A stretch of 64,000 nt of DNA from a virus (IMGVR_UViG_2740891848_000001:1-64000); one strand, 5' to 3'. Positions 681 to 55,358 are shown, counted from the first letter of the stretch. Program-made: numbers and translations. Notes: generated from the sequence alone by a model not told the origin.

Positions 681-729
681 TGGTAGCCAGCATGGTAGCT
701 AGACCGCTTATAATCGCCTCTAGCTACCA
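681..729. repeat. TGGTAGC repeats and 11-bp inverted repeat upstream of integrase (arm-type or regulatory sites)
   Basis: TGGTAGC at 681 and 693; TGGTAGCTAGA (693-703) is the reverse complement of TCTAGCTACCA (719-729). Confidence 0.55.
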
Positions 730-745
730 CCACAGAAAATCAAAA

Positions 746-2020
746 ATGCCACGCATCTTTCACGCTCTGGACGATGTCCAGATTCGCCATTGGATTGCCA
801 AAGGCGAGCCGGTTGCCAAGGCTGACGGCGACGGTCTGACCTTCACGCTCTCATCAAACGCTACCGCTACCTGGGTGCTGCGCTACAGCCGCGGCAAACG
901 TCGCCGCGAACTCACGCTCGGCAACTACCCGGATCTGACCCTGGCCGCAGCGCGCAAGGCCGCTCGTGCGCACCGCGTTGCTATCGACAATGGTGAAGAC
1001 CCTGCGGCCGACAAAAAGGTGGAGAAGGCGCGCACGGCCGAGGCGATCACCGTCAACCAGCTGTGCGACGACTACGTCGAGAAGCAACTGGAAGGACTCG
1101 CTGCCGTCACCGTCTACTACCGCACTTGGGACATCGACAATATCGTGCGCCCTGGCCTCGGATCGCTGGAGGTCCGCAAGGTCACGCCGTCCGATATCGT
1201 CTACATCATTGAAAACTCCAAGCGCTCGTGGACGGTATGCAAACGGATGCTCACGACGATGACGCAGCTCTTCGACCATGCGGCCGGTAGGAAAGTCATT
1301 CAGACCAATCCCACCTTCGGCATCAAGCTGAAGTCGCTCCTCGGCAAGCGCCCCCCAGTCCGCAAACGTCTCATGCTCAGTGAGGGGGAACTGCGCAAGC
1401 TGCTTCCCAACATCGACGAAACGATCGGCCGCGAGAATGGGCTGATGCTGCGCATCCTTCTTGCAACTTGTGTGCGGACGAACGAACTCGTCATGGCAAA
1501 GAAGGAATACATCGACCTGAAGCGCGGCAGCTGGTGGGTCTACGACGAGACGGTCAAGACACGCAACGGTTTCCTGGTCCCTCTGGTCCCCGTCATCGTC
1601 GGCTGGATGAAGGAGCTGATCACCCTTTCCGGCGACTCGGACTGGCTGCTACCCGTACGCAGCGGGAAGCGCCGCAATAGGCTTGGCGAGACCCACATCG
1701 GCAACACGACACTGTGGGCTGCGATTACGCGAGCGTTCGAGGCCAACAAGCTGGAGATGCGTCGGTTCACGCCGCACGACACCCGCAGCACGGCGAAGAG
1801 CCATATGCGTGACATGGGCATCTCGAACGAGATCAGCGAGATCGCGTTGAACCACAAGCTGAAGGGGATGGAAGGGATCTACGATGTGCGGGAAGAGATC
1901 CCGGAGCGTCGGCGGGCGCTGGAGTTGTGGGCAGCGTTCATCGCTGACTGCTGCGACGGGCGCGAGCCACAGACAGAACGCCCGTCGAACGTCGTCCCGA
2001 TGATGAGGAAGGTGGGATGA
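746..2020 (+). CDS. int: tyrosine recombinase/integrase with N-terminal arm-binding domain (P4-like/IntA type)
   Basis: N-terminal DGDGLTF...WVLRY...LTLGNYPDLTLAAAR arm-binding signature; catalytic R (CVRTNE), HDTR, LNH and Y (IYD); ATG at 746 chosen over 692. Confidence 0.95.
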   Translation: MPRIFHALDDVQIRHWIAKGEPVAKADGDGLTFTLSSNATATWVLRYSRGKRRRELTLGNYPDLTLAAARKAARAHRVAIDNGEDPAADKKVEKARTAEAITVNQLCDDYVEKQLEGLAAVTVYYRTWDIDNIVRPGLGSLEVRKVTPSDIVYIIENSKRSWTVCKRMLTTMTQLFDHAAGRKVIQTNPTFGIKLKSLLGKRPPVRKRLMLSEGELRKLLPNIDETIGRENGLMLRILLATCVRTNELVMAKKEYIDLKRGSWWVYDETVKTRNGFLVPLVPVIVGWMKELITLSGDSDWLLPVRSGKRRNRLGETHIGNTTLWAAITRAFEANKLEMRRFTPHDTRSTAKSHMRDMGISNEISEIALNHKLKGMEGIYDVREEIPERRRALELWAAFIADCCDGREPQTERPSNVVPMMRKVG

Positions 2021-2026
2021 ACGCGG

Positions 2027-2638
2027 TTACCACGGGTGTGTGAGACCGTGCTGTAGCTGTATGTGTGACGCCATCCCAGCGTCCGTTCCCTGGGCGAGAC
2101 CGCTAAAAAATTTCGCTGTTTCTCGAAGTACTTGGCACGTCAGGCGAGTCGTACCTTGCGAGTCTTGATTCCATGAGTACGCCGGCATGGTGAAACCGTG
2201 AGCGAAGCTATGTCGCACCTTGAACACTTGGTTTAGACGTTCACGGACGTGCAGTGCTGAGCCAGTGACGGCCCCTCTCAATCGGACACTCGACCAGTGA
2301 GGCCAAGGATCAAAACCGGTGTACTCCAAGCAAAAGTTTCTGGTGTTTTCGCTATTTGGCGTGTTCAATTTCTCTCTTGCCGCAACCATTCGGTCTCGTG
2401 CTATTGCATGCATTGCATGATAGCTCTGATCTAGTGGTTTTGCGGTAGCGACGTAATAATCCTCGGCCAGTGCTTTGACGTAGGCGTCCCAAGCCGCAGT
2501 TTGTGCCGCCAGCGCCGCGTGCAAAAATACAGATTTGGCAGATTGGTCCGCCTTTTTGTTCATCTTCGCCGCGTGCTCGACAAGGTGCTCAGCCTTATCT
2601 CTCAGCGCAACAAATCGGTTAAAAGCGCTTGACGGCAT
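2027..2638 (-). CDS. HEPN-domain protein (RiboL-PSP-HEPN-like), predicted endoribonuclease
   Basis: Helical 203-aa protein with Rx4H motif RHSFAH; start is 2 nt after the stop of the ParA-like gene. Confidence 0.75.
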   Translation of the reverse strand: MPSSAFNRFVALRDKAEHLVEHAAKMNKKADQSAKSVFLHAALAAQTAAWDAYVKALAEDYYVATAKPLDQSYHAMHAIARDRMVAAREKLNTPNSENTRNFCLEYTGFDPWPHWSSVRLRGAVTGSALHVRERLNQVFKVRHSFAHGFTMPAYSWNQDSQGTTRLTCQVLRETAKFFSGLAQGTDAGMASHIQLQHGLTHPW

Positions 2639-2640
2639 TT

Positions 2641-3678
2641 TTAAAACCGATTCACGAGCTTCGCCAACGCGGTTTTATAGTTTCGAAGCGGCTCGGGATT
2701 TACCTGCACACGCGTCCCATTGATGACCTTGGGGCCGGCCTTCATCCTATGCAGCGGCGTGCCGGTCAGAGCCGAAACGATTGATGCACTATGATAATCC
2801 GGAATGTCCACAAAGCGCTCATCGACCTCCACTTGAGGCGACGCAAACAAGGTTCTATGCTTCTTCGCCAATCTACCGATCGTCTCGCGAATGCCGATGT
2901 TCGCGGCCTCGAATGCTTTACTCGGAACCCCGTCAAACAGCGTGACGCGATTTGAAATAAACGTGTGGAGCTTGGGAAGGTCTATACCCTCCTCCCTCGC
3001 ACGTTTATAAAAACTAAGTCTCGCAAAACTAGCTATATACTCGTCACCTTGGCCATACAACAACGCAATGATATTTTCCATTCCGCGACGGGAACTCTCG
3101 TCGGCTGTAAACGGAACAACTAGGTACTCAGATGCGGCAATCGCCAGTTGCGTATAGACGGCGAAACTTGGATTGCAGTCGAAAAAGAAGACTGTCTCGT
3201 TCTCTCTGGACTCGCGCAACTCATCCTTCAAATCCTTAATCCAGTAGATCACCTTCTTCCACGAGTCGATGGGTACTGAGAGTTGTGAAGTCTGACGCAC
3301 GGCTTCGCCCAGCACCTCGACCAGGTTGTCGCCGCATACAAGAAAGAGATTTTTAGGGATCTTATCGTTCCATTTTGAAGCTTGGACAGCGTATTTAGCT
3401 GAATCACGTATCTGCATAAACGGGGAGTTGAGCCGCTTCTCCAAATACCCCCCGACACTAATCCGCTCCGTTCCCCCGAGCAACTTCCTCAGTGCAGCGC
3501 CGCCCGATAGCTGACCACCAAGTAACGTTTCCGAAACGTTAGCTTGCGGGCAGAGATCGATGACGAACACGTCGATGTCTGGATGCAAGTGAGCGTACTC
3601 ACAGGCACCGATGAAGCAAAGATAGCTTTTCCCAACGCCACCCTTGTTGTTCCAAAAAGCATAAGACGACATTGACAT
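2641..3678 (-). CDS. ParA/MinD-family ATPase
   Basis: Deviant Walker A NNKGGVGKS, IDLCPQANVS and FFDCNPS motifs; start set at ATG 3678 after AAGG. Confidence 0.85.
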   Translation of the reverse strand: MSMSSYAFWNNKGGVGKSYLCFIGACEYAHLHPDIDVFVIDLCPQANVSETLLGGQLSGGAALRKLLGGTERISVGGYLEKRLNSPFMQIRDSAKYAVQASKWNDKIPKNLFLVCGDNLVEVLGEAVRQTSQLSVPIDSWKKVIYWIKDLKDELRESRENETVFFFDCNPSFAVYTQLAIAASEYLVVPFTADESSRRGMENIIALLYGQGDEYIASFARLSFYKRAREEGIDLPKLHTFISNRVTLFDGVPSKAFEAANIGIRETIGRLAKKHRTLFASPQVEVDERFVDIPDYHSASIVSALTGTPLHRMKAGPKVINGTRVQVNPEPLRNYKTALAKLVNRF

Positions 3679-3909
3679 CCTTATCGTTGTAGACGGACAC
3701 CGCCCGGGGCGTGTATCCGCGCGTGAGGGCACATTACTAGAAACAAAAGCTTTGGACAATGACCGCTAGGTGACTCTCATTTGAAGAGTCCGCGGTGACG
3801 GCGACGTCGAACCCGACACTCCGACCACGATCGGCCACATCGAGGGTCGATTGTTGGCGACGCCCGATGCATCCAACATCATCATTGGCCGACGCATTCC
3901 CCCTGAACA

Positions 3910-5085
3910 TCAGTCCTTCTCAATCCAGTTCCCTTGCTCATCGTAATTCTGCGATCCAGAATACCCGAACGCATTCCAAACCATGTCAAACGCCGGTCTC
4001 AACGACTCGAAGGCCGGCACAGTCGGATCGGTCAAAACAATCTCCGGCAGCAAGATGATATTTCGATCTGGTAATCGAGGAAAGAAACCGAAGCCGTCAT
4101 TGGGGACTATGAATCTGTATCCCGTAAGGTCAATGAACGACAGGTACACATAGAAGGGTGCAGAGACATCCATCTGTCCGAGAAGCCCGAGATATCGCTG
4201 AACGGCGTTCCACGCGTGTTGCTCATAATACCTGCTGTGGATGTCCTTCTTCGTCTCACCGCCCGCAAAGACCTCGACGGCCTCGACAATACCGGCGCGA
4301 AATATTTGCGTGTAAGCATGGGACTTTCCCTCGGCATCGGGGTTCGTGTAGTCCACGATACCTTCAAGATTGATCGTCGAGTTTTGAAATTGCGTACGTC
4401 CAAGGGGGTGAAACTGCCTCAGTTGTTCGCTATAGAATCGCATATCTATCTGGTTCCGCCCGGCGAAGGCCGAGAGAGGGATGATATGCACGGCCATCTT
4501 GCATCCGACGTGGATCGGAACCGGGGTGCGGTACTCAAGAATTCGCCCCACGCGATCATTGCGGAAGTCCTCGATTCTCTGGGCAATGGCATCCGACAGG
4601 GCGAATGCCACCCTCAACTCGGCGACGTCCATCTCGAATTTACCCGACGAGTGTCGAGCATAGAATGGACCGCTGTCCCGGACCGTCACGCGGTGAGGAG
4701 CCGCCCAACTCTTAGCCACCCGCACTAGCAGCACTTCCCCGCCTGGCACCGGTATCAGTTTCAACTCCAACTTCGGCAGACGCGGTTCGATCCCGGATCG
4801 GATCATGCTTTCCAGCCGCAATTTCAGCTGGTCGGCGATTACCACCCCGATCCCCGGGATGGCGACCGGAATACCGTCACGGGCATCAATCCCATAAAGA
4901 AGATCTCCACCGTCAGTGTTGGCAAAGGAGGCAACTGCGGCCAAAAATGCGTGCTTAGCCTTATCGCTATTGTCCGGCAAGCCGCGCTTGTACTCCAACG
5001 CCTTACTCTCAGACACGCCGTTGTCGCGCAGTGTCAGAAGGTCGTCGTAGCTGATCAGGTCAAACGGCGTGGGAATCATCGACAC
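3910..5085 (-). CDS. AlbA_2 (Schlafen-like) domain protein
   Basis: N-terminal ESKALEYK...VASFANTDGGDLLYGI and APH...FYARHSSG motifs typical of AlbA_2; uncharacterised C-terminal domain. Confidence 0.85.
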   Translation of the reverse strand: MSMIPTPFDLISYDDLLTLRDNGVSESKALEYKRGLPDNSDKAKHAFLAAVASFANTDGGDLLYGIDARDGIPVAIPGIGVVIADQLKLRLESMIRSGIEPRLPKLELKLIPVPGGEVLLVRVAKSWAAPHRVTVRDSGPFYARHSSGKFEMDVAELRVAFALSDAIAQRIEDFRNDRVGRILEYRTPVPIHVGCKMAVHIIPLSAFAGRNQIDMRFYSEQLRQFHPLGRTQFQNSTINLEGIVDYTNPDAEGKSHAYTQIFRAGIVEAVEVFAGGETKKDIHSRYYEQHAWNAVQRYLGLLGQMDVSAPFYVYLSFIDLTGYRFIVPNDGFGFFPRLPDRNIILLPEIVLTDPTVPAFESLRPAFDMVWNAFGYSGSQNYDEQGNWIEKD

Positions 5086-5098
5086 ATGCCCCTAGGTA

Positions 5099-5127
5099 TG
5101 CGGTGAGGTTAAGTTTACCTCACCGCA
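5099..5127. terminator. stem-loop between the phage leftward operon and the AlbA_2 gene
   Basis: TGCGGTGAGGT/ACCTCACCGCA perfect inverted repeat; no clear U-tract. Confidence 0.45.
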
Positions 5128-7328: not shown

Positions 7329-7904
7329 TTAGGAGTTGCGTGCGTCCAGACCGCCCTTGTCTGCTCTTGCTTCAGCAGCGACGTTCGAGTAGGCATCGGG
7401 GAAGCGTTCGCGGAGCTTGGCGATGTTTTCCTCCATGATCTCTTCGATCGAGAAGGCAAGTGCATCACATGCGTGTGCTACCGCACAAACGATGTTGAGC
7501 AGCCCGCGCATAATGGACTCTCTCGACGACGCATGACCCAAGTTCGGAAGACCGAAGGCGATGAACCCGGTCTCGATGGACAAGCGGAAAGAAACCAGCT
7601 TCAGCTTCTCCGTGAGCGAATGGCTGTCGAAGTCGTCGAACAGAAATTGATACTCCGGGATGGTGTAGTTCAACGCGTCACACGCGATTGCAACGTACCA
7701 GAGTGTGTCGCCCAGTTCTTCGCGCATGTTTTTGATGAACTCAGGGCTGATCGCCTTACCGTAGATCGCAACCCTTTTCACTGTGGTGGTGAACTCGCCT
7801 CCTTCGGTGGCCAGACCGAGGATGGCGTGCTCAAGGCGCAGAGAAGCCGTGGCCAACGGCTTCTCTGTGCGGAGAGCGAGCGGAACATATTGCTGGAAGT
7901 TCAT
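7329..7904 (-). CDS. MazG-like nucleotide pyrophosphohydrolase with a degenerate internal duplication
   Basis: GLATEGGEF...EELGDTLWY MazG motif; ACDAL repeated; C-terminal NIAKLRERFPD. Confidence 0.8.
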   Translation of the reverse strand: MNFQQYVPLALRTEKPLATASLRLEHAILGLATEGGEFTTTVKRVAIYGKAISPEFIKNMREELGDTLWYVAIACDALNYTIPEYQFLFDDFDSHSLTEKLKLVSFRLSIETGFIAFGLPNLGHASSRESIMRGLLNIVCAVAHACDALAFSIEEIMEENIAKLRERFPDAYSNVAAEARADKGGLDARNS

Positions 7905-7927
7905 GGTCTATCTGTAGTGGTGGTGAA

Positions 7928-12481: not shown

Positions 12482-12564
12482 TTTCTCTTTGACTACGTGG
12501 TGGTGGTGTGCTGCGATTATAGCTAGATAAAACCTTCAAAGTACGCCTAACTAGCTGATAGTTC

Positions 12565-13902
12565 TCACACTACTTTGTCTGTTCGGAACCGCACGAACAC
12601 TGGGTTTCGCAGCGAGCCTTCTGAAGTCTTCTCCATATACTCGCATTCGAGAATCCAACCCATCATCTCCTCGCGCTTCGCCCAGAACTCGTGCCGTTCT
12701 GCGTCCGTATAGCCACCGCCTACGTCGACGCGGAAGGGACTACCGTCTTCGAGCGCGCCCTCGATCGTGAAGCCACCGAGCGCATGCTCATACTTGCCCT
12801 TCTTCTTGCCGTTATACGCCGCGACGATGCGGCCCTCGGCCGTGTCGAGAGGCTTGCCCTTCAGCCAGAACGGTGAGCGGTCCCAGACGTACGGCGCGTT
12901 GAGATCCTTCAACATGAAACCCTCGAAGCCCTGCGCCAGCGCGATGTCGAAGAACGTCTTTGTTTCCTCACGGCTGTTGACGATCTGCTTGTAGCTCGGA
13001 CGAAGGCGCCCTGTCCATTCCAGGCCATCCGGCCCCTCCTCTGCACAGATCTTCTCTAGTGCGATGTCGAGCGCGGAGCTGCGCTCGAACTGCGGCCGCA
13101 GACAAACCTGCTGGTCCCACTCCACCATCGTGAGGAAGTCGTATGCATAGAAGCGAAGTTGCGAGCGATCCGCGCCCTCCTTCTTAGCCTTCATAGTGGC
13201 CGAGAAGGAGGGATGCTTCTTCGTCGGGTCCACAACGTGGATCATCGCTTCGCCGTCGAGGACCATTGCTTGGTTACCTACCAGCGCTTCGCGAAGCGCT
13301 TGCATCTCCGCGTCGAACAGGCCGCCGATCCAGTACGTCTGGTCAAGGCCTTCACGGGAGTATCCGACGACCGGCTGGCCGGGGTGGATGAAGACCGTGA
13401 CGCGCTGGCCGTCCATCTTGAACTCGATTTGCGCCGGGAAGGTCGGAGTGTGATCGCCGATCTTCTCGGCCAACATCACGTCGAACACCGGGATCAGCTT
13501 CGGGAACACCTTGTTGATCTCCGTCGCACCGATGCCGACGCGCAGGTTCTTGCGCAGCACGCAGGCCAGGTTCTCCTGGGTCTCCTGGTCGTACTTCATG
13601 AGCACACTCAAGATTGCGGCCTTCGCGGCGTTTCCCGTCAGATGGCGGGTGGAGAGCGACAGCAGCAATTGAATGAACTCCTCGCCTTGGTCCACGTTGT
13701 AGGCTGAGTAATGATCCGGCATATCGAAATCTTTCACACCATAGGTGACGAACGGCGACAGCGCGGCGACCAGCATCTTCTTCGCAAACTCGTCTTCGTT
13801 AGCGCCCAGCTTGGTGAGAGCTTCGATCTTGTCGTTCTTCTTGGTTGTCGCGCGGCATTCAGCCATGAGGCGATTGAAACGGTACATATTGTCTTGATCC
13901 AT
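12565..13902 (-). CDS. ATP-dependent DNA ligase
   Basis: EFKMDGQR adenylation motif, LDGE, EGFMLK and C-terminal OB fold (GGGYTD, LRNPVF); alternative start at 13887. Confidence 0.93.
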   Translation of the reverse strand: MDQDNMYRFNRLMAECRATTKKNDKIEALTKLGANEDEFAKKMLVAALSPFVTYGVKDFDMPDHYSAYNVDQGEEFIQLLLSLSTRHLTGNAAKAAILSVLMKYDQETQENLACVLRKNLRVGIGATEINKVFPKLIPVFDVMLAEKIGDHTPTFPAQIEFKMDGQRVTVFIHPGQPVVGYSREGLDQTYWIGGLFDAEMQALREALVGNQAMVLDGEAMIHVVDPTKKHPSFSATMKAKKEGADRSQLRFYAYDFLTMVEWDQQVCLRPQFERSSALDIALEKICAEEGPDGLEWTGRLRPSYKQIVNSREETKTFFDIALAQGFEGFMLKDLNAPYVWDRSPFWLKGKPLDTAEGRIVAAYNGKKKGKYEHALGGFTIEGALEDGSPFRVDVGGGYTDAERHEFWAKREEMMGWILECEYMEKTSEGSLRNPVFVRFRTDKVV

Positions 13903-13914
13903 TGTGGTGGTGAT

Positions 13915-17212: not shown

Positions 17213-17236
17213 AGTCTTGATCCGTGGTGGTGGTGT

Positions 17237-22950: not shown

Positions 22951-23172
22951 CTACGTGGTCCTGCCGTGTGCTGCTTTCCAGACAATCCAGAAACCGTGGA
23001 CCGTCGCGTTCAGATAGCCATCGTCTTTCGGATCACGCTCAAGACTGTAGCCTTCGAGAATTTCCAGCTTCTCGAACACGTCTCGGCGCAGCCATCCATA
23101 GCGGCGCTTTTCGTACTTCTTGCGAATCGGGACGGGGAACGGGCTGGCGCGCTGTTGCTGCGCCGCGGTCAT
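22951..23172 (-). CDS. phage hypothetical protein
   Basis: 73 aa; YLNATVHGFWIVWKAA resembles a common small phage protein. Confidence 0.55.
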   Translation of the reverse strand: MTAAQQQRASPFPVPIRKKYEKRRYGWLRRDVFEKLEILEGYSLERDPKDDGYLNATVHGFWIVWKAAHGRTT

Positions 23173-23453
23173 GACTTCACCTTCGTGCGACGCAGGCGAT
23201 CACGTAGACCTTTGAGCCGGTTGCGCTGCTCCTTGGTCAACGCGTTGGAATCAAGCAGGTTCTTCGCCGCCCGGTTCCACGTCTCGCGCGTGATGGCTGA
23301 GGGGTTCTCGTCGTGCGCGTCCTCAATGGCGAACACTTCCTTGTTGGTCAGCAGGCTCGTGCCTGCAATCATCAGCGCCTCGACCGCCTTGCTAGGGTCA
23401 ATGCGCCGTGCAGCCGGGGCTGCTGTGGTGGTGGCTTGTTTGTCGTCCATCAT
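23169..23453 (-). CDS. phage hypothetical protein
   Basis: 94 aa, coupled overlaps. Confidence 0.55.
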   Translation of the reverse strand: MMDDKQATTTAAPAARRIDPSKAVEALMIAGTSLLTNKEVFAIEDAHDENPSAITRETWNRAAKNLLDSNALTKEQRNRLKGLRDRLRRTKVKS

Positions 23454-23643: not shown

Positions 23644-25182
23644 TTGGGGATGATCCCGATGACGATGATTGGCAAAGTGCGGCGGATGTTCCACCGCCAG
23701 AACAAATCGGTACGCGAGATAGCGCGTCTCACAAGCCTGTCGCGCAACACGATTAGCAAATACCTGAGCATGGAGATTCAGGAAGAACCGAAGTATCAGC
23801 GGCGCTCGCAGTCGACCCGGCTGACACCGTTTCACGAGGCGCTGGTGCAGGCGCTCAGCGTGGACGCAAGGCGGCCGAAGAAAGAGCGGCGCACCGCCTG
23901 GATGCTGTTCCAGGAGGTCAAGGCGAACGGCTACGATGGCTGCTATTCGCGGGTGACCGATTTCATCCGGAGCTGGCGGCAAGGCGAAGGCCAAGCGGTT
24001 TCGAAGTCGGCGTTTGTGCCGCTGCAATTCGAGCTGGGCGAAGCGTTCCAGTTTGATTGGTCCGAGGAAGGACTGGTTGTCGGCGGCATTTACCGCAAGC
24101 TGCAGGTGTCGCACATGAAGCTGTGCGCGTCGCGGGCATTCTGGCTCGTGGCCTACCCAAGCCAGGGTCACGAGATGCTGTTCGACGCCCATACGCGCTC
24201 GTTCACGGCCTTCGGCGGGGTGGCCCGTCGTGGCATCTACGACAACATGAAGACGGCGGTCGACAAGGTTCACAAAGGCAAGGGCCGCACAGTCAATCCG
24301 CGTTTCGCAGTGATGTGTTCGCATTACCTGTTCGATCCGGACTTCTGCAATGTCGCCAGTGGCTGGGAGAAAGGGGTCGTCGAGAAGAATGTGCAGGACA
24401 GCCGCCGGCGTATCTGGATCGAAGCGCGCGAGCAGCGATTCGGCAGTTTCGCCGATCTGAATGCATGGCTGGCGAGCCGGTGCCGGTCGTTGTGGGAGCA
24501 GGTGAAGCACCCGGACTATCGGGACCTGAGCGTTGCCGACGTGTTCGAGCAGGAGCGCGCGCATCTGATGCCGATGCCAACACCGTTTGACGGTTACGTT
24601 GAACGCGCGGCCCGGGTGTCGTCTACCTGCCTTGTGGTGATCGGGCGCAACCGCTACTCGGTACCCTGCGAATTTGCAGGCCAGATGCTCAGCACGCGGC
24701 TCTATCCGGGTCGCGTCGTGGTGGTGGGCGATGACGCGGTGGTGGCCGAACATGACCGTCTGGCCGACGAAGGTCTGGTGCGCTACGACTGGCAGCATTA
24801 CATCCCGCTGATCCAGCGCAAGCCCGGCGCCCTGCGCAATGGCGCGCCGTTCCTGGATATGCCCGAGCCGCTGCAGCGCCTGCGTCGGGCGTTACTACGC
24901 GAGCCAGGTGGTGACCGGGTAATGGCTAAGGTTCTGGCGCTGGTACCCGAAAGCGGTCTGGATGCCATAGTGATTGCAGTCGAACTTGCATTGGAGCAGG
25001 CGCCGCCCTCCGGGCGCGTGAGCATCGAGCATGTGGTGAATGTGCTGTCGCGCATGCGCAGCGTGGAGATGCCGCCGAAGATCGATACGGCGCTACAGTT
25101 GACGACACCGCCGCTTGCCGACACATCGCGATACGACGGGCTGCGCCCAGTGCTCCAACAGCCGGAGGCCGGTCATGCTTGA
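23644..25182 (+). CDS. istA: IS21 transposase
   Basis: N-terminal HTH; QFDW, YDNMK and KGVVE DDE motifs. Confidence 0.95.
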
Positions 25183-25975
25183 CCTAATCGTCGAACTCAA
25201 GCAGTTGCGGCTGCATGGCATGGCTGCCGGTTGGGCCGAACTACTCGAACAGGGTAACGTCGAGGTGGCGTCTTCGCAGTGGTTGCTTGAACGGCTACTG
25301 CAGGCCGAGAGTACTGATCGTGCCGTGCGTTCGGTCAGCCACCAGATGAACGCGGCGAAGTTCCCGGTGCATCGCGATCTGGCCGGCTTCGAGTTCGACG
25401 GTTCGCCGGTCGATCGCCAGCTCGTCATGCAACTAGCCGGCATGACGTTCACCGAGAGTGCACACAACCTGGTTCTGGTCGGCGGCCCCGGCTCGGGCAA
25501 AACGCATCTGGCGACCGCCATTGGCGTATCGGGGATCATGCACCACGGCAAGCGAGTGCGCTTCTACTCGACCGTGGATCTGGCCAACGCGCTGGAGCAG
25601 GAGAAGGCGCAGGGTCGCGCCGGGCGGATCGCGGCGAGCCTGCTGCGTCTTGACCTGGTCATTCTGGACGAACTTGGGTATCTGCCCTTCAGCCAGGCCG
25701 GCGGGGCACTGCTGTTCCATCTGTTGAGCCGCCTGTACGAGCACACGAGCGTTGCGGTCACGACGAATCTGGACTTCGCCGAATGGTCGAGCGTGTTCGG
25801 CGACGCGAAGATGACCACAGCGTTGTTGGACCGGCTAACGCACCACTGCCACATCGTGGAGACCGGCAACGAGAGTCACCGTTTCCGGCATAGCAGCGCC
25901 AGTGCAAAGAAGCGCATCCGGTCGCGTGAAGCGGCGCGAAAAGCCGACGCCGCAAGTGCTTCTGAGCTCGAATGA
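25175..25975 (+). CDS. istB: IS21 helper ATPase
   Basis: Walker A GGPGSGKT, Walker B ILDELG, AxxDRLxH motif; overlaps istA stop. Confidence 0.95.
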
Positions 25976-27335: not shown

Positions 27336-27373
27336 GATGTGGTGGTGATGATTTGTTAAGGACGAACGCATAG

Positions 27374-27696: not shown

Positions 27697-27768
27697 GATT
27701 GATCCTTTCATCTTGTGGTGGTGGTTGGTACTACGGGTGAAACTGACTTACACAGTGAAGCGTGGGGA

Positions 27769-29858: not shown

Positions 29859-29903
29859 GATTTACTCTGTGGTGGTGAGTGAATAACGTGCAGCTCTGCA
29901 CTT

Positions 29904-32703: not shown

Positions 32704-32939
32704 TACGCAGGCTCCTCGACAAGTGCAGGTCTGCACGATTCGACGTACTCGCTGGTGTGGAAGATGGTCTCAACGCGCTGCATGCCGGCGACGAAGTGTT
32801 CCTTCTGCACGTAACCCGTGCCGCCTTCGTTGGCCAGCTGCTTGGCGTGGGCGATCGCGTTCTTCGACGAGTTGAATGGGCGCGTTCGATATGCGCCCGA
32901 CTTCGTCGTGATTCGGGTGCGATAGATCGGCTTGCTCAC
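32703..32939 (-). CDS. phage early hypothetical protein
   Basis: Likely GTG start at 32939 (MSKPIYRTRITTK). Confidence 0.5.
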   Translation of the reverse strand: MSKPIYRTRITTKSGAYRTRPFNSSKNAIAHAKQLANEGGTGYVQKEHFVAGMQRVETIFHTSEYVESCRPALVEEPA

Positions 32940-35074: not shown

Positions 35075-35122
35075 GATTTGATCCTCAAAATGTGCAATGT
35101 CTGCACGTTGTGGTGGTGGGTG

Positions 35123-35751: not shown

Positions 35752-36014
35752 GCAGGCACCGCCTCAGTGATTGCGTATGTGTAGCGCGCCGAGCCGAGCT
35801 TGCCGTCCATTGTGATGACGATGCCGCACTGCGCGGAGAGACGGTTGATGAAGTCTTCGAAGCTGTGGAAGTTCCGCGTATCGACGTTCTCGACCATCAT
35901 CTCTTCGAGCACGACATGAATCGCGGGGCCAGCGTAGGAAACTCTCTTCTTCATGTCAGCGAGCATGTCGCCGAAGAAGTGGAAGTATCCGATCGGGTTC
36001 GTGGTGGTGGACAC
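35748..36014 (-). CDS. phage early hypothetical protein
   Basis: GTG start preceded by AAGGATCAAAACTC. Confidence 0.55.
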   Translation of the reverse strand: MSTTTNPIGYFHFFGDMLADMKKRVSYAGPAIHVVLEEMMVENVDTRNFHSFEDFINRLSAQCGIVITMDGKLGSARYTYAITEAVPA

Positions 36015-36049
36015 GAGTTTTGATCCTTGTAGAACGTGCAGTTCTGCAC

Positions 36050-36386: not shown

Positions 36387-36590
36387 CTACGAGCTGCGAC
36401 GGACGACTATCTTGTCGTCATACTTGTCGTGCTCGATTAGCGTTGTTCGCACGTATTGAGCCGTGCAGTTGCGGTTGTAGAAGACGGTGTCGATCTTTTC
36501 GACACCGAGAAACACGTCCCAACTGATATGTGCAGTCTCTGCACTTATCGGTTGGCGACGTACCAGTTCGAGACTTGCGCGGAGCATCAT
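36387..36590 (-). CDS. phage early hypothetical protein
   Basis: 67 aa; VFY...VRTTLIEHD.YD pattern. Confidence 0.55.
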   Translation of the reverse strand: MMLRASLELVRRQPISAETAHISWDVFLGVEKIDTVFYNRNCTAQYVRTTLIEHDKYDDKIVVRRSS

Positions 36591-37461: not shown

Positions 37462-37571
37462 TAGTCTTGATCCAGAGATTGGAGTTGTTCTTGAAGACGC
37501 AGCGGGTCAACCGGCAGTTCTTGCGAACGCAGGTATTCGCTGACCGTCTCGGCCAGAAAGTCAAAGCTCAT
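37461..37571 (-). CDS. small hypothetical protein (36 aa, not in ORF track)
   Basis: MSFDFLAETVSEYLRSQ...; TAATG overlap with next gene; preceded by TCACCACCACA. Confidence 0.45.
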   Translation of the reverse strand: MSFDFLAETVSEYLRSQELPVDPLRLQEQLQSLDQD

Positions 37572-37613
37572 GTGATTTATGTGGTGGTGATTAAGTGCAG
37601 AGCTGCACTATTC

Positions 37614-38006: not shown

Positions 38007-38171
38007 AACGTGTTTCCGTGGTGGTGGAAGTTTTGATCCTAGAAGCCTCATGGCGGGCCTCCGGGGACTACAGTGCTACGCTGGTATTGCCCAACCCCCA
38101 CAAGCCTGCGGTGAGGGCTGTCATGCGGTCTGCGGCCAGGTGCAGACCTGCACATTCTGTTGCGTTTGCTG

Positions 38172-38594: not shown

Positions 38595-38605
38595 GTGTGG
38601 TGGTG

Positions 38606-39091
38606 AACTATCAGATAGTTGTGAGATTCGACCGCGCGGGCCAGCGCGCTGGGGTCAAAAACGGTGTGCGAATAGACTTTCGATTTTTACTTCTTAAGGA
38701 CACTTATCTCTATCTGATAATTGACGTCCTCACTCGTGGATCGACTTTGAAAGTCTATTCAACACCCCCTTCTCTTTTCTTGGGGGAAAGGGAAGGAAGA
38801 AAAAGAAGAAGAAGTAGGAAGCTAAGAGATTGATTTGAAGGGCGAAAAACGCCGCTTTCAGAACTATCTGATAGTTTGCGCACGGCGCGATGTTTTGCCC
38901 GTGGTCTGACACAACGAGCTTGTGGTCTCCAAGTGGGTTATCACTGGGGCTGGAGCGCAACGGCGACTTATCCACAACTGCGGAGCCTCCCGGTTACGCG
39001 TTGGACACTCAACCCATAGGTGGAACAACGCTACCCCTCCACCGCACGCGACATCCACACGCTTCACTCGCCGCGCCAACTATCAGATAGT
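38606..39091. repeat. cluster of AACTATC-W-GATAGTT palindromes
   Basis: Sites at 38606, 38862, 39078, variant at 38710; related sites at 12549 and 44849. Confidence 0.75.
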
Positions 39092-39105
39092 GCAGATCTG
39101 CACCT

Positions 39106-39546: not shown

Positions 39547-39767
39547 TTACCTGAAAAGGTGCAGAACTGCACTTTGTCCGGAATCAAATCGGCGCGGCCT
39601 ATAAGGAGAGCCAGGCATGGCTAGTCAACCACGACAGCAGGACGCTACAGCGGCCCAATCAGGCGCAATGGCGTGCTGATGCGGTTGACTCGCAATCCGG
39701 CGCGGAAAACGCGCCCTTTATACATACAGCGAAACACAACCAGCGCTTTCGCGCCGGTCGATGCTGC

Positions 39768-40469
39768 TTAAGCCTTCAGGAGTTCCGGCGTAGCCGCCAG
39801 TTCAGCCAGTTCCGCATACATGGCCCGCGCATATTCGCGCCGTTGTCCTTCGGACAACATCTTGAGCATGGCGCGCGTCTGAAACACGAGATCGGAAACC
39901 GTGCCAAGCATCGCGCTCACCGATTCAACCGGGTCCGCGTTATCGGCTTGCTGCGGCTTGCTTACTTCTGGCTCGCTAGGCGTGCGTGGCGTGGCTTGCT
40001 TGGGCTTCTTTTCCGCTGTCGGTTTGCTGAAACCGAATTCAACAAAAAGCGCGTCCGTGCTATGACACTTAAGACCAAAGAGCCAAGCCTTAACTACTGC
40101 GGTTGCGTCCTTATCATCGTCCGCATTCAACACGTCAAGCATGTTGAGACCCTTTGCGGCCGCTTGCTTGCAGATACCAACAGCCTTTTCAACATAGCGC
40201 TTAGCCGTGCCCATGCAAGCATCCGAAAGCGTGGCGCGCGCTACTTCGTCCAATGCTTCCCACGCTTTCGCGCCTTCGCGCTGCGCCGCCAGCTCAAATG
40301 CGACCGGGCGAACGTTGTTAGCGGCAAAGCCACGCTCTGCAAACGAACCTTGGCGCAAGTAGACCGCGACCAATGCAGCATAAGCGCCGCCGACAACAGA
40401 TTTTTCAGCGGAAACAATCGCCTTAACTGCGAACTTGATTTGTTCAAGCGTCGGAGTGTTGATAGACAT
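39768..40469 (-). CDS. first gene of the early leftward operon, hypothetical
   Basis: GGAG RBS before ATG 40469 (MSINTPTLEQ); two operators upstream; lower GC than neighbours. Confidence 0.65.
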   Translation of the reverse strand: MSINTPTLEQIKFAVKAIVSAEKSVVGGAYAALVAVYLRQGSFAERGFAANNVRPVAFELAAQREGAKAWEALDEVARATLSDACMGTAKRYVEKAVGICKQAAAKGLNMLDVLNADDDKDATAVVKAWLFGLKCHSTDALFVEFGFSKPTAEKKPKQATPRTPSEPEVSKPQQADNADPVESVSAMLGTVSDLVFQTRAMLKMLSEGQRREYARAMYAELAELAATPELLKA

Positions 40470-40662
40470 TGTAGAAACTCCAGTAATAAGCGCTTCATTG
40501 CGCCGATTAAGCCAGTATGAAAAGTGCAGCTCTGCACTTTCCTTCTCTTTGTCAAAAGTGCAGACGCTGCACTTTTGAACATTGCGGGCGCACGAATGCC
40601 GACCCGCAGCAGACCCATAGGTGGTGGTGGTCTGCTTCGCTCTCCCGTCAGGGATTAGTAAC

Positions 40663-40759
40663 ACTATACCTAGATATTATTGTGAGGGGAAGTGGCTGGA
40701 TGCCGATTACGCCAAACCCATTAATTCTAAAATTTCAGATTTTCCAACCTAGGTATAGT
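40663..40759. promoter_or_regulatory. divergent promoter pair with mirrored CTAGGTATAGT elements
   Basis: ACTATACCTAG (40663-40673) and CTAGGTATAGT (40749-40759) are exact reverse complements, each containing a TATAGT -10; AT-rich spacer. Confidence 0.6.
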
Positions 40760-40797
40760 ATTATTTAAAATATTCACCACAGATTCAGGAGCGGCAC

Positions 40798-41416: not shown

Positions 41417-41445
41417 TTGCAAAGGACTTTGGAGATGTTTATAGT
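41417..41445 (+). promoter_or_regulatory. sigma70 promoter of the putative sRNA
   Basis: TTGCAA (41417-41422), 17-nt spacer, TATAGT (41440-41445). Confidence 0.75.
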
Positions 41446-41450: not shown

Positions 41451-41615
41451 CTCAAGTGCTGCGTGATCTGTGGTGGTGAGCGCAGCAGCTGAGACGCCAG
41501 TCTCAGTCATGACTTAGGGGTGGCCAGCTCCGAAGTCGACCGTCCTAGACGGTAGTTTTGATCCATTGTAGAAGCTCAAAAAGCCCATCCGATTAGCTAT
41601 CGAATGGGCTTTTTC
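41451..41615 (+). ncRNA. putative multi-hairpin phage small RNA complementary to start-associated motifs
   Basis: No ORF; promoter upstream and terminator downstream; hairpins 41457-41487, 41489-41506, 41511-41537, 41539-41553 and a weak one at 41554-41577; loops match repeated mRNA-leader motifs. Confidence 0.7.
41578..41615. terminator. bidirectional intrinsic terminator
   Basis: A6-GCCCAT-C-CGAT/ATCG-A-ATGGGC-T5. Confidence 0.85.
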
Positions 41616-41708
41616 CTTTTCAACCTACGAATTGTCATTCAAGTGTGCGAACTGCTGTGTTTACATACAGTAGTCAGTAGTCGTTCTCTTTGTTGAACAC
41701 TTGAACGT

Positions 41709-44228: not shown

Positions 44229-44782
44229 GCGTTCTCTTCTGTGGTGGTGTCAGTCGCGTCATCGTCAGCTGCTGCTGAACGGGCCAGGACGCTCCTAAGT
44301 CGATCCATAACGTCCGTACGCTGGTCAGGCGATAGGACTTCTTCCATGATCGTGAGTACGGTGTCCTGGAAGTCTTTGATCTGCTTGACTCCAAGCGCGC
44401 GCTCACGAGCATTAACAAGGCGTTCCAACAAACTGGTCGCGGTGCGGAAATACGCCATCCGCTCCGTTTGATCTGATGCCGCTATGCCCTTGCCGTAGTT
44501 CTTCAGCTCCGTAAAGACGCTGTGAAGGTCACTAGCAAGCGTGCTGTCAATTTCATCCTCGGAAACTGGGGTTGATGGAGGCTTTTGATCCTCTGTCGGC
44601 TTGTTCATCACTTGCCAACCCTGTCGGAATGAGACGACTTCATTGACGAACTGCTTCGTCTTCGGGTCGTACGGACATTCTGTGTCATTGAGGTATTCGC
44701 GGTCCTCGATAGTCAGCGTGACAGCAGTGTGCAACGCCCATCCAACGAGGGCATCAATGTAGGGGTAGTGGCGTTCGCTCAT
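44225..44782 (-). CDS. hypothetical protein, possible terminase small subunit
   Basis: Helical protein adjacent but divergent to the large terminase; ATG 44782 preceded by ATGGATCAATC. Confidence 0.4.
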   Translation of the reverse strand: MSERHYPYIDALVGWALHTAVTLTIEDREYLNDTECPYDPKTKQFVNEVVSFRQGWQVMNKPTEDQKPPSTPVSEDEIDSTLASDLHSVFTELKNYGKGIAASDQTERMAYFRTATSLLERLVNARERALGVKQIKDFQDTVLTIMEEVLSPDQRTDVMDRLRSVLARSAAADDDATDTTTEENA

Positions 44783-44956
44783 GATTGATCCATTGAAGAA
44801 GTGCGAGAATATTCGGTTCCGCACATAAGGAAAATGAAAATCAGCGGCACTATCAGATAAAAACGCACAACTATCGTCTGATTGCGAACATACATTTTTT
44901 CTTTGTGTTGTGTCGAAGCCTCACTGAGAATAGCGCCTGATCCAAAGGTCTCCTCA

Positions 44957-49941: not shown

Positions 49942-50059
49942 AGCTGCCGGCCCTGTCCACCACCAGGGCTGTCAGTGACCGAAACGTAAGAAGAAGCTGC
50001 TGGACCCGTCCACCACCGGGGCCAGCAGTGGTTGAACCCAACACCACAATGGATCAAAC

Positions 50060-51247
50060 ATGGCCGATCTGATCGACATCGAACGCCGCTCCCCTGCGGA
50101 AGTATTGGCCGGACTCCGTCCGGACGAAGCCAGCGACCAAGGTCGCTCCATCAACGCTGGCCAGCAGCTCGTGCGCCGCGCCGCAGATGCAGGCTTGAAC
50201 CTGCGTGACTACCTCACGCTGGCGATCGACCCGCGCCGCGCCGACGACGCAGCTCGCTACGAAGGCCTGAATGGCTACGAAGCCGCCCTGTCGTTCCTGA
50301 ACCTGCCGGTTCGCCAAGACCTCGAAAACGGCGTGCTCCTGCAAGCCGCGAGCGAGACGTTCCAGACGTACCCCGGCACTCGCGCGATGTTCCCGGAAGT
50401 CATGGACGATGTGCTGCGCTGGCGCAACCGTCAAGACCAACTGGAATCGGTCGCTCCGATCCTCGCGCAATCGCGCACGATCAGCGGCACCGAGCTGATC
50501 TCGACGTTCGTCGACGACGACAGCGCCGAGCGCGGTACGTACTCGGTCGGTGAATTCGGCCGCGTGCCGGTTCGCACGATCCGAACGTCGCAAAGCACGG
50601 TAGGCATGTTCAAGCACGGCTCCGGTTACCGTACCTCGTACGAGTTCAACCGTCGCGCGTCGCTCGACATCATGACCCCGTTCGCATCGCGCGTCGGTCG
50701 CGAACTGGAAATCTCGAAGGTGCGTGCAGCGACGAGCATCCTGATCAACGGCGACGGCGTGAATGGCGCAGCCCCAGTGGTCAAGGTCAGCGACTTCGGC
50801 GGCGACAAGGCGAAGGAGTTCTCGACCAACTACAAGGCGCTCGCCAAGTGGTTGATGGCTCGCGCCAAGGCTGGTTACCCTATCGACACGATCCTGGGCA
50901 ACTACGACATGTTCGTGGAGCTGCTGTTCATGTTCCAGCCGGTGCTGAACCTCGGCAACGCGACGGACATCGCCGAGCTGGTCAAGGTCGGCACGCCGAA
51001 GATCAACACCAGCCTGCCGATCCTGAACCAATCGGTGAACTTCGCGCTGTCCTCGACGGTTCCGGAAGGCCAACTGATCGGCTTCACGAAGGGCGAAACG
51101 CTGGAAGAGCTGGTCGAAGCAGGTTCGACGATTTCGGAAAACGAGCGCTCGATCATCAACCAGTCGATCACGTACGTCCGTACCGAAAACACCGGCTACA
51201 AGCTGGCGTTCGGCGACACGCGCCAAGTGCTCGACACCGCTAACTAA
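50060..51247 (+). CDS. major capsid protein
   Basis: 395 aa, strong codon bias, position, followed by a strong terminator. Confidence 0.85.
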   Translation: MADLIDIERRSPAEVLAGLRPDEASDQGRSINAGQQLVRRAADAGLNLRDYLTLAIDPRRADDAARYEGLNGYEAALSFLNLPVRQDLENGVLLQAASETFQTYPGTRAMFPEVMDDVLRWRNRQDQLESVAPILAQSRTISGTELISTFVDDDSAERGTYSVGEFGRVPVRTIRTSQSTVGMFKHGSGYRTSYEFNRRASLDIMTPFASRVGRELEISKVRAATSILINGDGVNGAAPVVKVSDFGGDKAKEFSTNYKALAKWLMARAKAGYPIDTILGNYDMFVELLFMFQPVLNLGNATDIAELVKVGTPKINTSLPILNQSVNFALSSTVPEGQLIGFTKGETLEELVEAGSTISENERSIINQSITYVRTENTGYKLAFGDTRQVLDTAN

Positions 51248-51265
51248 AGCGGCTCGGGTTGAAGG

Positions 51266-51297
51266 AAAAGGCCCGCCCTCACGGGCGGGCCTTTTTT
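51266..51297 (+). terminator. intrinsic terminator after capsid gene
   Basis: AAAAGGCCCGCCC-TCAC-GGGCGGGCCTTTTTT. Confidence 0.9.
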
Positions 51298-51320
51298 CAT
51301 TGAACTGACCACCACACATC

Positions 51321-51653: not shown

Positions 51654-51662
51654 GGACGCGCG

Positions 51663-54212: not shown

Positions 54213-54384
54213 TCGAGCGGATCAACTCCGCGTCTGCTTTAGTGCCCGCATCGAGTCCAGCTTCAATGAGTGTGATCAGCTCCGCGTTCTTGGTGCGACG
54301 ATTGATCTTCGCACGTGCCTTTACCTGTTCATGTATGTCCGGTGGCAATCGCAACGTCGATGGCACCATGTCTTGAACGTCCAT
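54190..54384 (-). CDS. Arc/Mnt-family ribbon-helix-helix regulator
   Basis: TLRLPPDIHEQVKARAKINRRTKNAELITLIE matches the Arc pattern LRLP......A..N.RS.N.E. Confidence 0.8.
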   Translation of the reverse strand: MDVQDMVPSTLRLPPDIHEQVKARAKINRRTKNAELITLIEAGLDAGTKADAELIRSITNSGQR

Positions 54385-54478
54385 TCTGGTTCTCCTTTAA
54401 ACCAATAAAAACCTTTGATTCGTGACGGTAGCACACGTAGCATCCGTGCTACCAGAATTTTCAACCGGAGAACTAACG

Positions 54479-55270
54479 ATGGCTGGTGAAGCAAAGTCTA
54501 ATAAGTTCATGCTTGGCGCGGCCACCGTGATGATCGGTCCGCAGAAAGAGCTGTTCAACCTGAACCCTGAAGAGCACTCGATCGGTCTCGTCAAGAACTT
54601 CTCGATCAGCGGCCAGCCGGCGTACACCGAGCTGACGCAGGGCGTAAAAAACTCCGTCGTGTACTCGGTGATGACCGGCAACCCAGTCACCGCGACGATG
54701 GAAGTCTACGAGCACACGTCGAAGAACCTGGCCTACGGCCTCGGTTTGGACGGGTCGACGATGGACCCGATCGCCACCAAGACGAGCACGAACGCTGACG
54801 TACCGGCAAACGTCGCGGGCACGAAGCTGATTCCGGTGGCCTCGATCACCGATCTCGCAGTGGGCGACTGGTTCCAGGCTGTGGTGCAGGGTTCGAGCGA
54901 CAAGCTGCTCGTCGCGCGGATCAAGGAACTCGATGCGCAGGGCAAGACGATCACGATCGCCGACGAACAGAGCTTCGATTACGCCCTCCCCAATGGCACG
55001 GTGGTGCAGAAGGTGAACGTGGTCGGTATCGGCTCGAAGTCGGATCAGCCGTTCCTGTCGGCGAAGATCGTCGGCAACCTCGCTGACGGCACGCCGGTCG
55101 CGCTGCTCATCCCGAAGATCCGTATCACGGGCGGCTTCACGCTGGCGTTCAAGACGGACTCGTTCGGCAACCTGCCGTATAAGTTCCAGCCGTACGACCT
55201 AGTTAACACCGACCCGTTCTACGACACGTTCCTGCCGTTCGGTCAGGCGATGCTGGCGGCTGCAAACTAA
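54479..55270 (+). CDS. major tail (tube) protein
   Basis: 263 aa, GGAG RBS, strong codon bias, followed by a terminator and chaperone genes. Confidence 0.75.
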   Translation: MAGEAKSNKFMLGAATVMIGPQKELFNLNPEEHSIGLVKNFSISGQPAYTELTQGVKNSVVYSVMTGNPVTATMEVYEHTSKNLAYGLGLDGSTMDPIATKTSTNADVPANVAGTKLIPVASITDLAVGDWFQAVVQGSSDKLLVARIKELDAQGKTITIADEQSFDYALPNGTVVQKVNVVGIGSKSDQPFLSAKIVGNLADGTPVALLIPKIRITGGFTLAFKTDSFGNLPYKFQPYDLVNTDPFYDTFLPFGQAMLAAAN

Positions 55271-55307
55271 AGGTTCTTTTCAGCACTAAAAAGTTCCTTG
55301 CTGCACC

Positions 55308-55340
55308 AAGCCACACGACTGTAAAGTCGTGTGGCTTTTT
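55308..55340 (+). terminator. intrinsic terminator after tail tube gene
   Basis: AAGCCACACGAC-TGTAAA-GTCGTGTGGCTTTTT. Confidence 0.85.
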
Positions 55341-55358
55341 CATTGGATCACCACCACC

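Follow-up and report, generated by a model that had tools for sequence, protein, structure and literature searches.

A nine-nucleotide leader tag in a JWF-like siphophage and a candidate phage-encoded RNA complementary to it

Introduction

Why does a phage place one and the same nine-nucleotide word at the start codons of genes of every class, whether early, replication, structural or lysis? The question is raised by IMGVR_UViG_2740891848_000001:1-64000, a 64,000-nucleotide (nt) stretch of virus DNA (hereafter the window), which comes from a virus record of 81,839 bp (G000), that of a JWF-like soil siphophage, and covers its first 64 kb. A first-pass annotation of the window had described the word CACCACCAC, here called the tag, as start-associated and always in mRNA sense, and had mentioned as a side note a single intergenic antisense copy at 41470. 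That copy is most likely the key to the mechanism, as it lies in the loop of a candidate RNA gene. With a probability of roughly 0.6, and on the strength of sequence signals, we propose that the tag is an RNA-level leader mark on about 20 mRNAs and that an RNA of about 160 nt, encoded by the phage itself, pairs with it and would lower the translation of these mRNAs jointly.

Results

The tag is concentrated at start codons

The exact word CACCACCAC occurs 23 times in the window, compared with 0.31 copies expected from dinucleotide shuffles (largest shuffle, 3), which agrees with the earlier estimate of fewer than one chance copy per 64 kb. With 27 copies it is the most frequent 9-mer of the whole 81,839-bp genome. 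The extended form of the tag is (U)CACCACCAC(A)(G/A)A; 43% of sites have U at −1 and 52% have A at +1. Of the 24 distinct sites, about 17 precede a start codon by 0–35 nt, in mRNA sense, and a further two closely follow one. Counted within −40 to +20 of a candidate start on the same strand, 16 of the 24 distinct G000 sites are start-proximal, whereas randomly placed positions give a mean of 1.9 and a maximum of 8 (binomial p ~7e-13); the association with starts, in mRNA sense, is thus upheld. Tagged genes include early, replication, structural and lysis genes and are spread across about 75 kb. A strong −10 box is found directly upstream of 3 of the 24 copies, as expected for the first genes of transcription units.

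The 5′ end of the tag ranges from about −43 to +12 relative to the start, on both sides of the ATG. In six genomes, most copies have it between −30 and −6, with a smaller group between +4 and +14. Five of the seven copies that follow the ATG in these genomes are read in the ACC (threonine) frame, in unrelated proteins.

The tag is kept among relatives and contrasts with proxy host genomes

Ten relatives contain 11–30 copies of the tag each. Orthologous genes are tagged, including those for MazG, a resolvase-like protein, a 59-residue open reading frame (ORF), primase, ArdA, the tail chaperone, the tail fibre and the lysin, while the spacers to the start diverge in both length and sequence. For ArdA and the tail chaperone, the side of the ATG on which the tag lies depends on the genome: it either precedes the ATG or closely follows it. 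Since the tag is kept where spacers diverge and the ATG is crossed, and since copies are found in the threonine frame, the RNA word itself appears to be the selected object and the 30S footprint the zone permitted to it. Achromobacter phage JWF, the nearest named relative, has two distinct sites (four overlapping matches) and none of the orthologous copies.

The density of the 9-mer is ~330 per Mb in the phage compared with 16, 16 and 102 per Mb in three Burkholderiales genomes, used as proxies in place of an identified host. When an identical rule was applied to both, 12 of 24 phage copies precede a start, compared with 0 of 40 copies sampled from Paraburkholderia, likewise a proxy host (p ~8e-7). 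The contrasts in density and in start position argue that the signal is private to the phage, and the enrichment before ordinary host genes that the first-pass annotation had singled out as telling against its proposal was not seen in this proxy genome. As a separate observation, G012 (L190) contains at ~69464–69511 an uninterrupted 48-nt CAC/ACC tandem tract, an expanded form of the tag.

Few tagged leaders have a Shine-Dalgarno core

The leaders of G000 fall into three classes, carrying a GGAGG-type Shine-Dalgarno (SD) sequence, the tag, or GGAUCAA at SD distance. A GGAG, GAGG or AGGA core is present in 1 of 16 tagged leaders compared with 27 of 77 other genes (p 0.03), and the mean predicted duplex with the anti-SD sequence is correspondingly weak (−2.6 versus −5.3 kcal/mol). 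The tag is predicted to be unpaired with a probability of 0.77, versus 0.47 for control leaders. No 7-mer complement of the tag was found in the 16S and partial 23S ribosomal RNA (rRNA) of Cupriavidus, a proxy as above, and the best duplex of the tag with these sequences reaches −12.2 kcal/mol, compared with −19.8 kcal/mol for the loop of the candidate RNA described below.

GGAUCAA (motif B), often found as (C)AAUGGAUCAAAAC, is a second private leader motif and lies 2–6 nt before starts. Sites in the window are at 13887–13895, 17215–17223, 35078–35086, 36018–36026, 37465–37473, 44786–44794 and 50048–50056. Motif B also occurs at starts in JWF, which lacks the complementary RNA, and for this reason might be an independent variant of the SD. 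JWF has in addition a start element of its own, CAGCACACA(G/A)AC, which precedes the ATG of six early genes by 14–18 nt and stands between −10-like boxes and normal SDs (55990, 67653, 68992, 69553, 72555 and 73989 in L001+L002, all on the minus strand). A search of JWF for a locus complementary to CAGCACACA found none.

A conserved candidate RNA gene contains the complement of the tag

The antisense copy at 41470 is positioned in a 350-nt gap between the HNH endonuclease and primase genes. It is the sole intergenic antisense copy, as noted earlier; two further antisense copies are intragenic, one in istA of IS21 (24718) and one in a structural gene (53365). Signals for an RNA gene on the plus strand surround it. 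A sigma-70-type promoter (TTGCAA, 17 nt, TATAGT; 41417..41445) is found at the equivalent place in all sub-clades, with differing hexamers, and is followed by a predicted structured RNA of about 160 nt (41452..41612) composed of five hairpins and an intrinsic terminator, with no ORF. The apical loop of hairpin H1 comprises 15 nt, GAUCUGUGGUGGUGA (41465..41479), of which 41470–41478 form the exact tag complement GUGGUGGUG. A single-stranded stretch, AGUUUUGAUCCAUUGUAGAAGCUC (41554..41577), with the core GUUUUGAUCCAUUG, precedes the intrinsic terminator (41578..41619). Read on the opposite strand, the terminator also follows the primase gene; its T-run is kept on the plus strand only.

The predicted fold has a minimum free energy of −66.7 kcal/mol (z −4.2). 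Among nine sequences representing three sub-clades, compensatory changes are observed at 23 of the 40 predicted pairs. The H1 stem varies at three pairs while the 15-nt loop is constant, and the loop is identical in all 13 of the 13 homologues that include H1. In the proposed structure 93% of cells are paired, compared with about 40% when the partners are slid, and 0 of 500 shuffles reach the observed values. G-U cells outnumber A-C cells 43 to 3, in a structure that was itself predicted on the plus strand. The kept promoter position, the T-run kept on the plus strand and the excess of G-U over A-C together support the plus strand as the strand of the RNA. These sequence signals point to an independent RNA gene with its own promoter, terminator and conserved structure.

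A covariance model detects the RNA in every tag-bearing relative and does not detect it in JWF. No Rfam family was found in the window at the gathering score. In genome contigs, a gapped RNA pattern gave only matches expected by chance for a database of that size, none of which passed the covariance model, and a specific three-block RNA pattern gave zero matches in metagenome contigs. A small ORF on the minus strand of the locus was considered and rejected, as its length and frame differ between relatives. The loop of hairpin H3, GGUGGCCAGC (41520–41529), hardly varies: each of the nine aligned homologues has GUGGCCAGC. With its self-complementary core, UGGCCA, this loop could be a third seed or an RNA-dimerisation loop.

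The RNA is complementary to leaders at two positions

For each phage, all perfect 8-nt complements between its gene leaders and its own RNA were mapped. Two sharp peaks were obtained, one in the H1 loop (seed A, at least nine leaders) and one in the stretch GUUUUGAUCCAUUG before the terminator (seed B, 6–9 leaders), over a background of 0–3; internal coding windows gave no complementarity peaks. The chance that a given 9-mer has its complement within a 161-nt RNA is ~6e-4. The extended duplex between tag and loop is calculated at −27 kcal/mol, compared with −10.8 kcal/mol for the loop with the anti-SD tail and −12 kcal/mol for the best rRNA site.

The match of seed B to motif B leaders reaches 13 nt, for example in the capsid leader, ACAAUGGAUCAAA. 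The G004 RNA carries UUUCGAUCC, and GGAUCGAA is the form preferred by the leaders of that phage, whereas either A or G is tolerated by phages with U at that position (10:2 versus 2:5, p 0.045, on small counts). In the provirus sub-clade (G008), seed B has a change at the edge of the helix, and the leaders still read GGAUCAA. JWF lacks both the RNA and the conserved tag.

The phage and its relatives

G000 encodes an integrase, a family A polymerase, an ATP-dependent ligase, a Prim-Pol primase, a GpA-type terminase, an SNF2 helicase, an SMC-like protein, MazG and ArdA. Genes are directed leftward from ~44.8 kb and rightward past that point. JWF is of equal size and gene order and has 72% nucleotide identity across terminase and portal. 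A terminase search of IMG/VR yielded relatives at 79–96% identity with 11, 28, 14 and 21 copies of the tag, and a second sub-clade, found later, comprises proviruses of ~79 kb and an 82.8-kb contig with 29–30 copies in each. One provirus relative (L193) is found in an NCBI genome (GCA_001527205.1, LOYT01000032.1:177500–183019), integrated in a 795-kb contig of a sequenced isolate; the presence of relatives as proviruses of sequenced isolates makes this a culturable system. A terminase scan of genome contigs gave zero relatives, and a terminase search of 401 Burkholderiales genomes gave a single match at 29%. In a search of sequencing runs, matches to G000 came from soil and rhizosphere DNA runs, with partial shares, and none came from RNA runs. 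An integrase is present in G000 and G002, and neither a tyrosine nor a serine recombinase was found in the complete genomes of G003 and G004.

Two blocks of cargo in G000 are not found in the relatives searched. An HEPN (RiboL-PSP)/AAA_31/Schlafen-AlbA cassette (2027–5085) adjoins the integrase gene, and an IS21 element (istA and istB, 23644–25975) is inserted in the early region. As proposed earlier, the leaders of the HEPN/AAA_31/Schlafen cassette (2.0–5.1 kb), of IS21 and of the Phd/ParE genes are free of the tag, and they have ordinary SD leaders instead; this agrees with the earlier suggestion that these genes were acquired later.

Individual tag sites

The exact copies reported by the first-pass annotation at 7917, 12497, 13904, 17224, 27339, 27715, 29869, 35110, 37581, 38018, 38597, 44241 and 55349 were all found, as were the variant at 40775 and the partial copies before the protease and capsid genes. 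Sites are likewise present at the listed positions 726 and 51308, but these match the tag at 8 of 9 positions rather than exactly. The earlier list was incomplete, lacking 7783, 23425, 24718, 36001, 40621, 53365 and 62288. The closeness of most copies to the start was borne out, with spacings of 1–18 nt for most and the reported 35 nt for the copy at 35110.

In the leftmost part of the window, the variant UACCACCAC (725..733, plus strand) lies 12 nt before ATG 746 of the tyrosine integrase gene, and the G008 orthologue has the full CACCACCAC at the equivalent place. The MazG gene has a copy (7917..7925, minus strand) 12 nt before ATG 7904 that is kept in G002, G003 and G004, where spacers differ. 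An internal sense copy in the same gene (7783–7791), kept in G002, has GAAGGAGG and UGGCCACC in front of it and an in-frame GTG behind it, and could mark an internal start or part of a two-site RNA contact involving the H3 and H1 loops.

The next four sites are on the minus strand. The form CACCACCACCAC is found twice, at 12497..12508, 15 nt before ATG 12481 of the 167-residue resolvase-like protein and 7 nt after a TATAAT box (kept in 6 of 6 complete relatives), and at 17224..17235, where it is followed by GGAUCAA and lies 11 nt before ATG 17212 of the 59-residue ORF upstream of the DNA polymerase. The ATP-dependent DNA ligase gene has its copy (13904..13912) 1 nt before ATG 13902, followed by AAUGGAUCAA, which contains motif B, and by a second ATG at 13887. 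A copy at 23425..23433 lies in the first codons of ORF 23169–23453, 20 nt after ATG 23453, and its assignment is tentative.

All copies from ardA to the 298-residue ORF are also on the minus strand. The ardA copy (27339..27347) lies 3 nt before ATG 27335, and in G003, G004 and G012 the tag is positioned just after the ATG, behind a normal SD. For an ORF of 75–80 residues, the copy at 27715..27723 lies 3 nt before ATG 27711 and 18 nt before ATG 27696, with motif B between the two ATGs. The copy at 29869..29877, extended as CUCACCACCACAGAG, is 10 nt before ATG 29858 (96 residues, phrog_7895). That at 35110..35118 is 35 nt before ATG 35074 (98 residues), from which it is separated by a GUGCAG..UUGCAC hairpin and motif B. 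At 36001..36009, the tag follows GTG 36014 (88 residues) by 2 nt and is read as threonine codons; motif B precedes the GTG, and the post-start position is observed in 5 of 5 orthologues. Further copies are found 9 nt before ATG 37571 of a 36-residue ORF (37581..37589), 11 nt before ATG 38006 of a 130-residue ORF, where GGAUCAAAACU precedes the tag (38018..38026), and 2 nt before ATG 38594 of a 140-residue ORF (38597..38605). A copy in the 5′ region of ORF 39768–40664 (40621..40629) is followed by an ATG that is out of frame with the PHROG-supported 298-residue ORF, and for this reason no start is assigned to it.

The remaining sites flank the candidate RNA gene or lie beyond it. On the plus strand, a shifted variant, CACCACAGAU (40775..40784; CACCACAGAT at 40775), is found before the HNH endonuclease start TTG 40798, in G000 only, and complements the 5′ half of the loop, AUCUGUGGUG. 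The primase copy (44241..44249, minus strand) lies 12 nt before ATG 44228, inside the 3′ end of the upstream gene, and is also present in the provirus of the NCBI isolate. Partial CACCACA words precede the protease start at 48379 and the capsid start at 50060. The variant GACCACCAC (51307..51315, plus strand) is 5 nt before ATG 51321 of a 110-residue ORF, the first gene past the capsid terminator. The tail chaperone copy (55349..55357, plus strand) is 1 nt before ATG 55359 of a 145-residue ORF, assigned by synteny with JWF gp019, and a near-copy follows the ATG; in G003, G004 and G008, the tag of this gene is found after the ATG. A further copy is at 62288. At the tail-fibre and lysin genes (genome positions 68497 and 72483), TAAAATT(T)CGG is found directly upstream of the tag and is kept in relatives; it resembles the −10 region of a late promoter, in which case the mRNAs of these genes would have the tag at their very 5′ end.

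Two kinds of palindrome were also observed. Ten GTGCAG-N2/3-CTGCAC palindromes are confined to the early region, several of them directly upstream of tags (29888–29901, 32723–32736, 36036–36049, 36530–36544, 37595–37608, 38140–38153, 39090–39103, 39559–39572, 40524–40537 and 40558–40572), and may be operators for a dimeric regulator or small terminators. The palindromic, operator-like ATCTGATAG and CTATCAGAT are found at the divergent early/late junction and before the 140-residue ORF (38608, 38866, 39080 and 44850).

Discussion

A model for the tag and the RNA

The tag would mark sites of fresh ribosome starts with a word that contains no purines except A, is predicted to be unpaired and largely replaces the SD. 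Because it largely replaces the SD, it probably assists the loading of 30S subunits, as standby sites or C/A-rich enhancers do. Pairing with the tag is predicted for the RNA's invariant apical loop, which carries GUGGUGGUG, and pairing with GGAUCAA leaders for the second exposed stretch. Since no tag falls outside the 30S footprint, which spans about −30 to +20 around the start codon, this pairing would mask the loading site and lower all tagged genes together. A single RNA would then govern how much is made from replication, anti-restriction, structural and lysis genes. Where the tag lies makes repression the effect to expect by default, with activation or protection as the alternative; if the RNA is made and pairs as predicted, we put repression over activation at about two in three. 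Because the complete, integrase-free G003 and G004 keep both tag and RNA, the system does not appear to be a lysogeny or immunity device.

Several observations weigh against this model. At +4, the leader flank prefers G (AGAG beyond +3) where the complement of the loop is U, which would limit pairing to about 9–12 nt. The seed A loop is invariant in all homologues, leaving only presence versus absence to compare. Motif B persists in JWF and in G008, and the covariation of seed B is based on small counts. The RNA and its strand are both called from sequence signals, and the gene calls come from a home-made, motif-blind codon-usage caller, which makes some starts uncertain. That JWF has CAGCACACA and no locus complementary to it indicates that C/A-rich leaders are a trait of the wider group and need no RNA partner. 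Finally, many tagged genes are essential and lack an SD, which is awkward for a pure repressor site and suggests an additional, positive role for the tag itself.

Alternative explanations

The tag might be an intrinsic translation signal and nothing else, an unstructured C/A-rich enhancer or standby site that acts perhaps through S1, with the RNA loop serving another purpose or none. This agrees with the SD-poor, unpaired character of tagged leaders, with the presence of essential and highly expressed genes among them, with the JWF start element that has no complementary RNA, and with the fact that C/A-rich and ACA elements are known enhancers that act at variable distance. We nevertheless consider it unlikely, because it would not predict that one exact 9-mer is kept across genomes at ~80% protein identity, that the tag is retained after the ATG behind a good SD in ArdA, or that its exact complement forms an invariant apical loop while a second seed mirrors a second leader motif. 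Recognition by a sequence-specific RNA-binding protein, encoded by the phage (in the manner of T4 RegA) or by the host and controlling translation, would explain why the 9-mer is exact and asymmetric and why it is found both before and after the ATG, inside the ribosome footprint, as well as the AGAG flank preference that departs from the loop complement. However, the analysis yielded no candidate protein, the only copy of the tag at the RNA locus is on the strand that neither promoter nor terminator supports, where it would be A-C mismatched, and neither the second seed nor its covariation with leaders is predicted, which leaves this explanation improbable. Equally improbable in our estimate is that the RNA is an adaptor or licence. 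On this reading, the lineage would have exchanged the SD contact at about 20–40 genes for the private tags CACCACCAC and GGAUCAA, which resemble pieces of the 16S 3′ tail, and its multi-seed RNA, with SD-like loops, would bridge tagged mRNAs to the ribosome, hand them over or protect them. If that were true, the adaptor RNA would constitute an initiation code of the phage's own, working while SD-dependent initiation of the host is shut down.

Explanations at the DNA level, or through the ribosome itself, have less in their favour. The tag could be an orientation-locked DNA site for a transcription-stopping phage repressor, as in the L5 stoperator model, or a promoter-proximal element, given its 20–30 or so asymmetric copies in short intergenic gaps, their orientation with transcription, the integrase of G000 and G002 and the three copies that follow strong −10 boxes. 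We regard this as very improbable, because G003 and G004 keep tag and RNA in complete genomes lacking a tyrosine or serine recombinase, because a −10 box precedes only 3 of 24 copies, and because SD depletion, restriction to the ribosome footprint and the complementary loop would all go unexplained. A general promoter reading was dropped on the same count of −10 boxes. A Chi-like DNA signal would fit the orientation, but Chi sites are independent of start codons, and it was dropped as well. We give even less credence to the proposal that the tag mimics the 3′ end of 16S rRNA (UCACCUCCUU) while the SD-like loop (GGUGGUGA) acts on the ribosome and leaders compete for it. The tag does agree with the 16S tail at 7 of 10 positions when that tail is read from its 3′ end, and the H1 loop could pair with the anti-SD tail at −10.8 kcal/mol; yet the predicted pairing of the loop with the tag is far stronger, at −27 kcal/mol. 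The resemblance of the loop to an SD carries little weight, because any complement of an anti-SD-like word resembles an SD.

Significance and comparison with known systems

Start-associated phage sequences have been unexplained since 2011. For one lineage, the model of a tag paired by a phage RNA offers a testable answer, namely that the tag is the address label of a phage small RNA. If it is correct, a single RNA co-regulates replication, anti-restriction, structural and lysis genes post-transcriptionally, a layer apparently undescribed for any phage as far as we have searched; our literature search found no published description of CACCACCAC as a phage leader element or of such a tag-RNA system. 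The tag would also represent a natural, genome-wide, SD-independent initiation signal free of purines other than A, with a bearing on start selection where an SD is missing and on how orthogonal expression control could be designed.

The first-pass annotation had cited the start-associated sequences (SAS) of Cluster K mycobacteriophages as a precedent. The SAS is a 13-mer, GGGATAGGAGCCC, that contains an AGGAG SD core, is fixed 3–7 bp before the start and is found at non-structural genes only (Pope 2011, PMC3203893). Its function was left open, with an RNA or protein partner considered, and several Cluster K genomes have a single copy in reverse orientation (PMC3203893). The phage tag resembles the SAS in being private, asymmetric, of one orientation, positioned beside starts (mostly ATG), kept across sub-clades at different gene families and absent from such positions in host genomes, here represented by proxies. 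It differs in having no purines except A (an SD core in 1 of 16 leaders, mean −2.6 kcal/mol), in a spacing that is not fixed at 3–7 bp and crosses the ATG between orthologues, and in being present in all gene classes rather than non-structural genes only. The precedent is thus a loose analogy, as both the SD core and the fixed spacing fail to carry over.

Among phage small RNAs, c4 of P1 and P7, VpdS and PreS pair with phage mRNAs near ribosome-binding sites, and VpdS acts in trans on phage and host mRNAs (PMC12197685). In these systems, c4 has two sites in one immunity operon, and VpdS and PreS have no genome-wide shared tag, whereas here at least ~20 dispersed targets would share one. Immunity antisense RNAs such as P1 c4 and P4 CI act at few sites in one operon, a feature matched neither by the dispersed targets nor by the integrase-free relatives described here. 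The stoperators of mycobacteriophage L5 and of Cluster A phages serve the prophage repressor as DNA sites; they are short, asymmetric and intergenic, number in the tens and are oriented with transcription. Their link with lysogeny is not matched, as G003 and G004 are free of integrase yet tagged (no search for a repressor was made), and unlike stoperators, the tag has features that point to RNA: the footprint window, SD depletion, threonine-frame copies and a complementary RNA.

The closest functional parallel is with GcvB, although no sequence or Rfam relationship connects it to the phage RNA. According to the accounts of Sharma 2007 and Yang 2014 given in PMC3879156 and PMC7534054, a G/U-rich seed of the GcvB small RNA masks C/A-rich (ACA) enhancers and represses many mRNAs, and these accounts describe C/A-rich enhancers as working without a fixed distance to the SD or AUG. 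Pairing of a small RNA anywhere from upstream of an mRNA's ribosome-binding site through the fifth codon can block initiation. The likeness here, on the phage side predicted, consists of one small RNA with an exposed seed and of C/A-rich leader sites in many mRNAs; an exposed, conserved seed that complements a shared site near the ribosome-binding site is matched by the 15-nt loop and by tags between −30 and +20. GcvB is a host RNA that acts on amino-acid genes through degenerate C/A-rich sites accompanying an SD, whereas in the phage system the RNA and all of its predicted targets are found in one phage, the site is an exact 9-mer, most targets have no SD, and the seed is presented in a hairpin loop.

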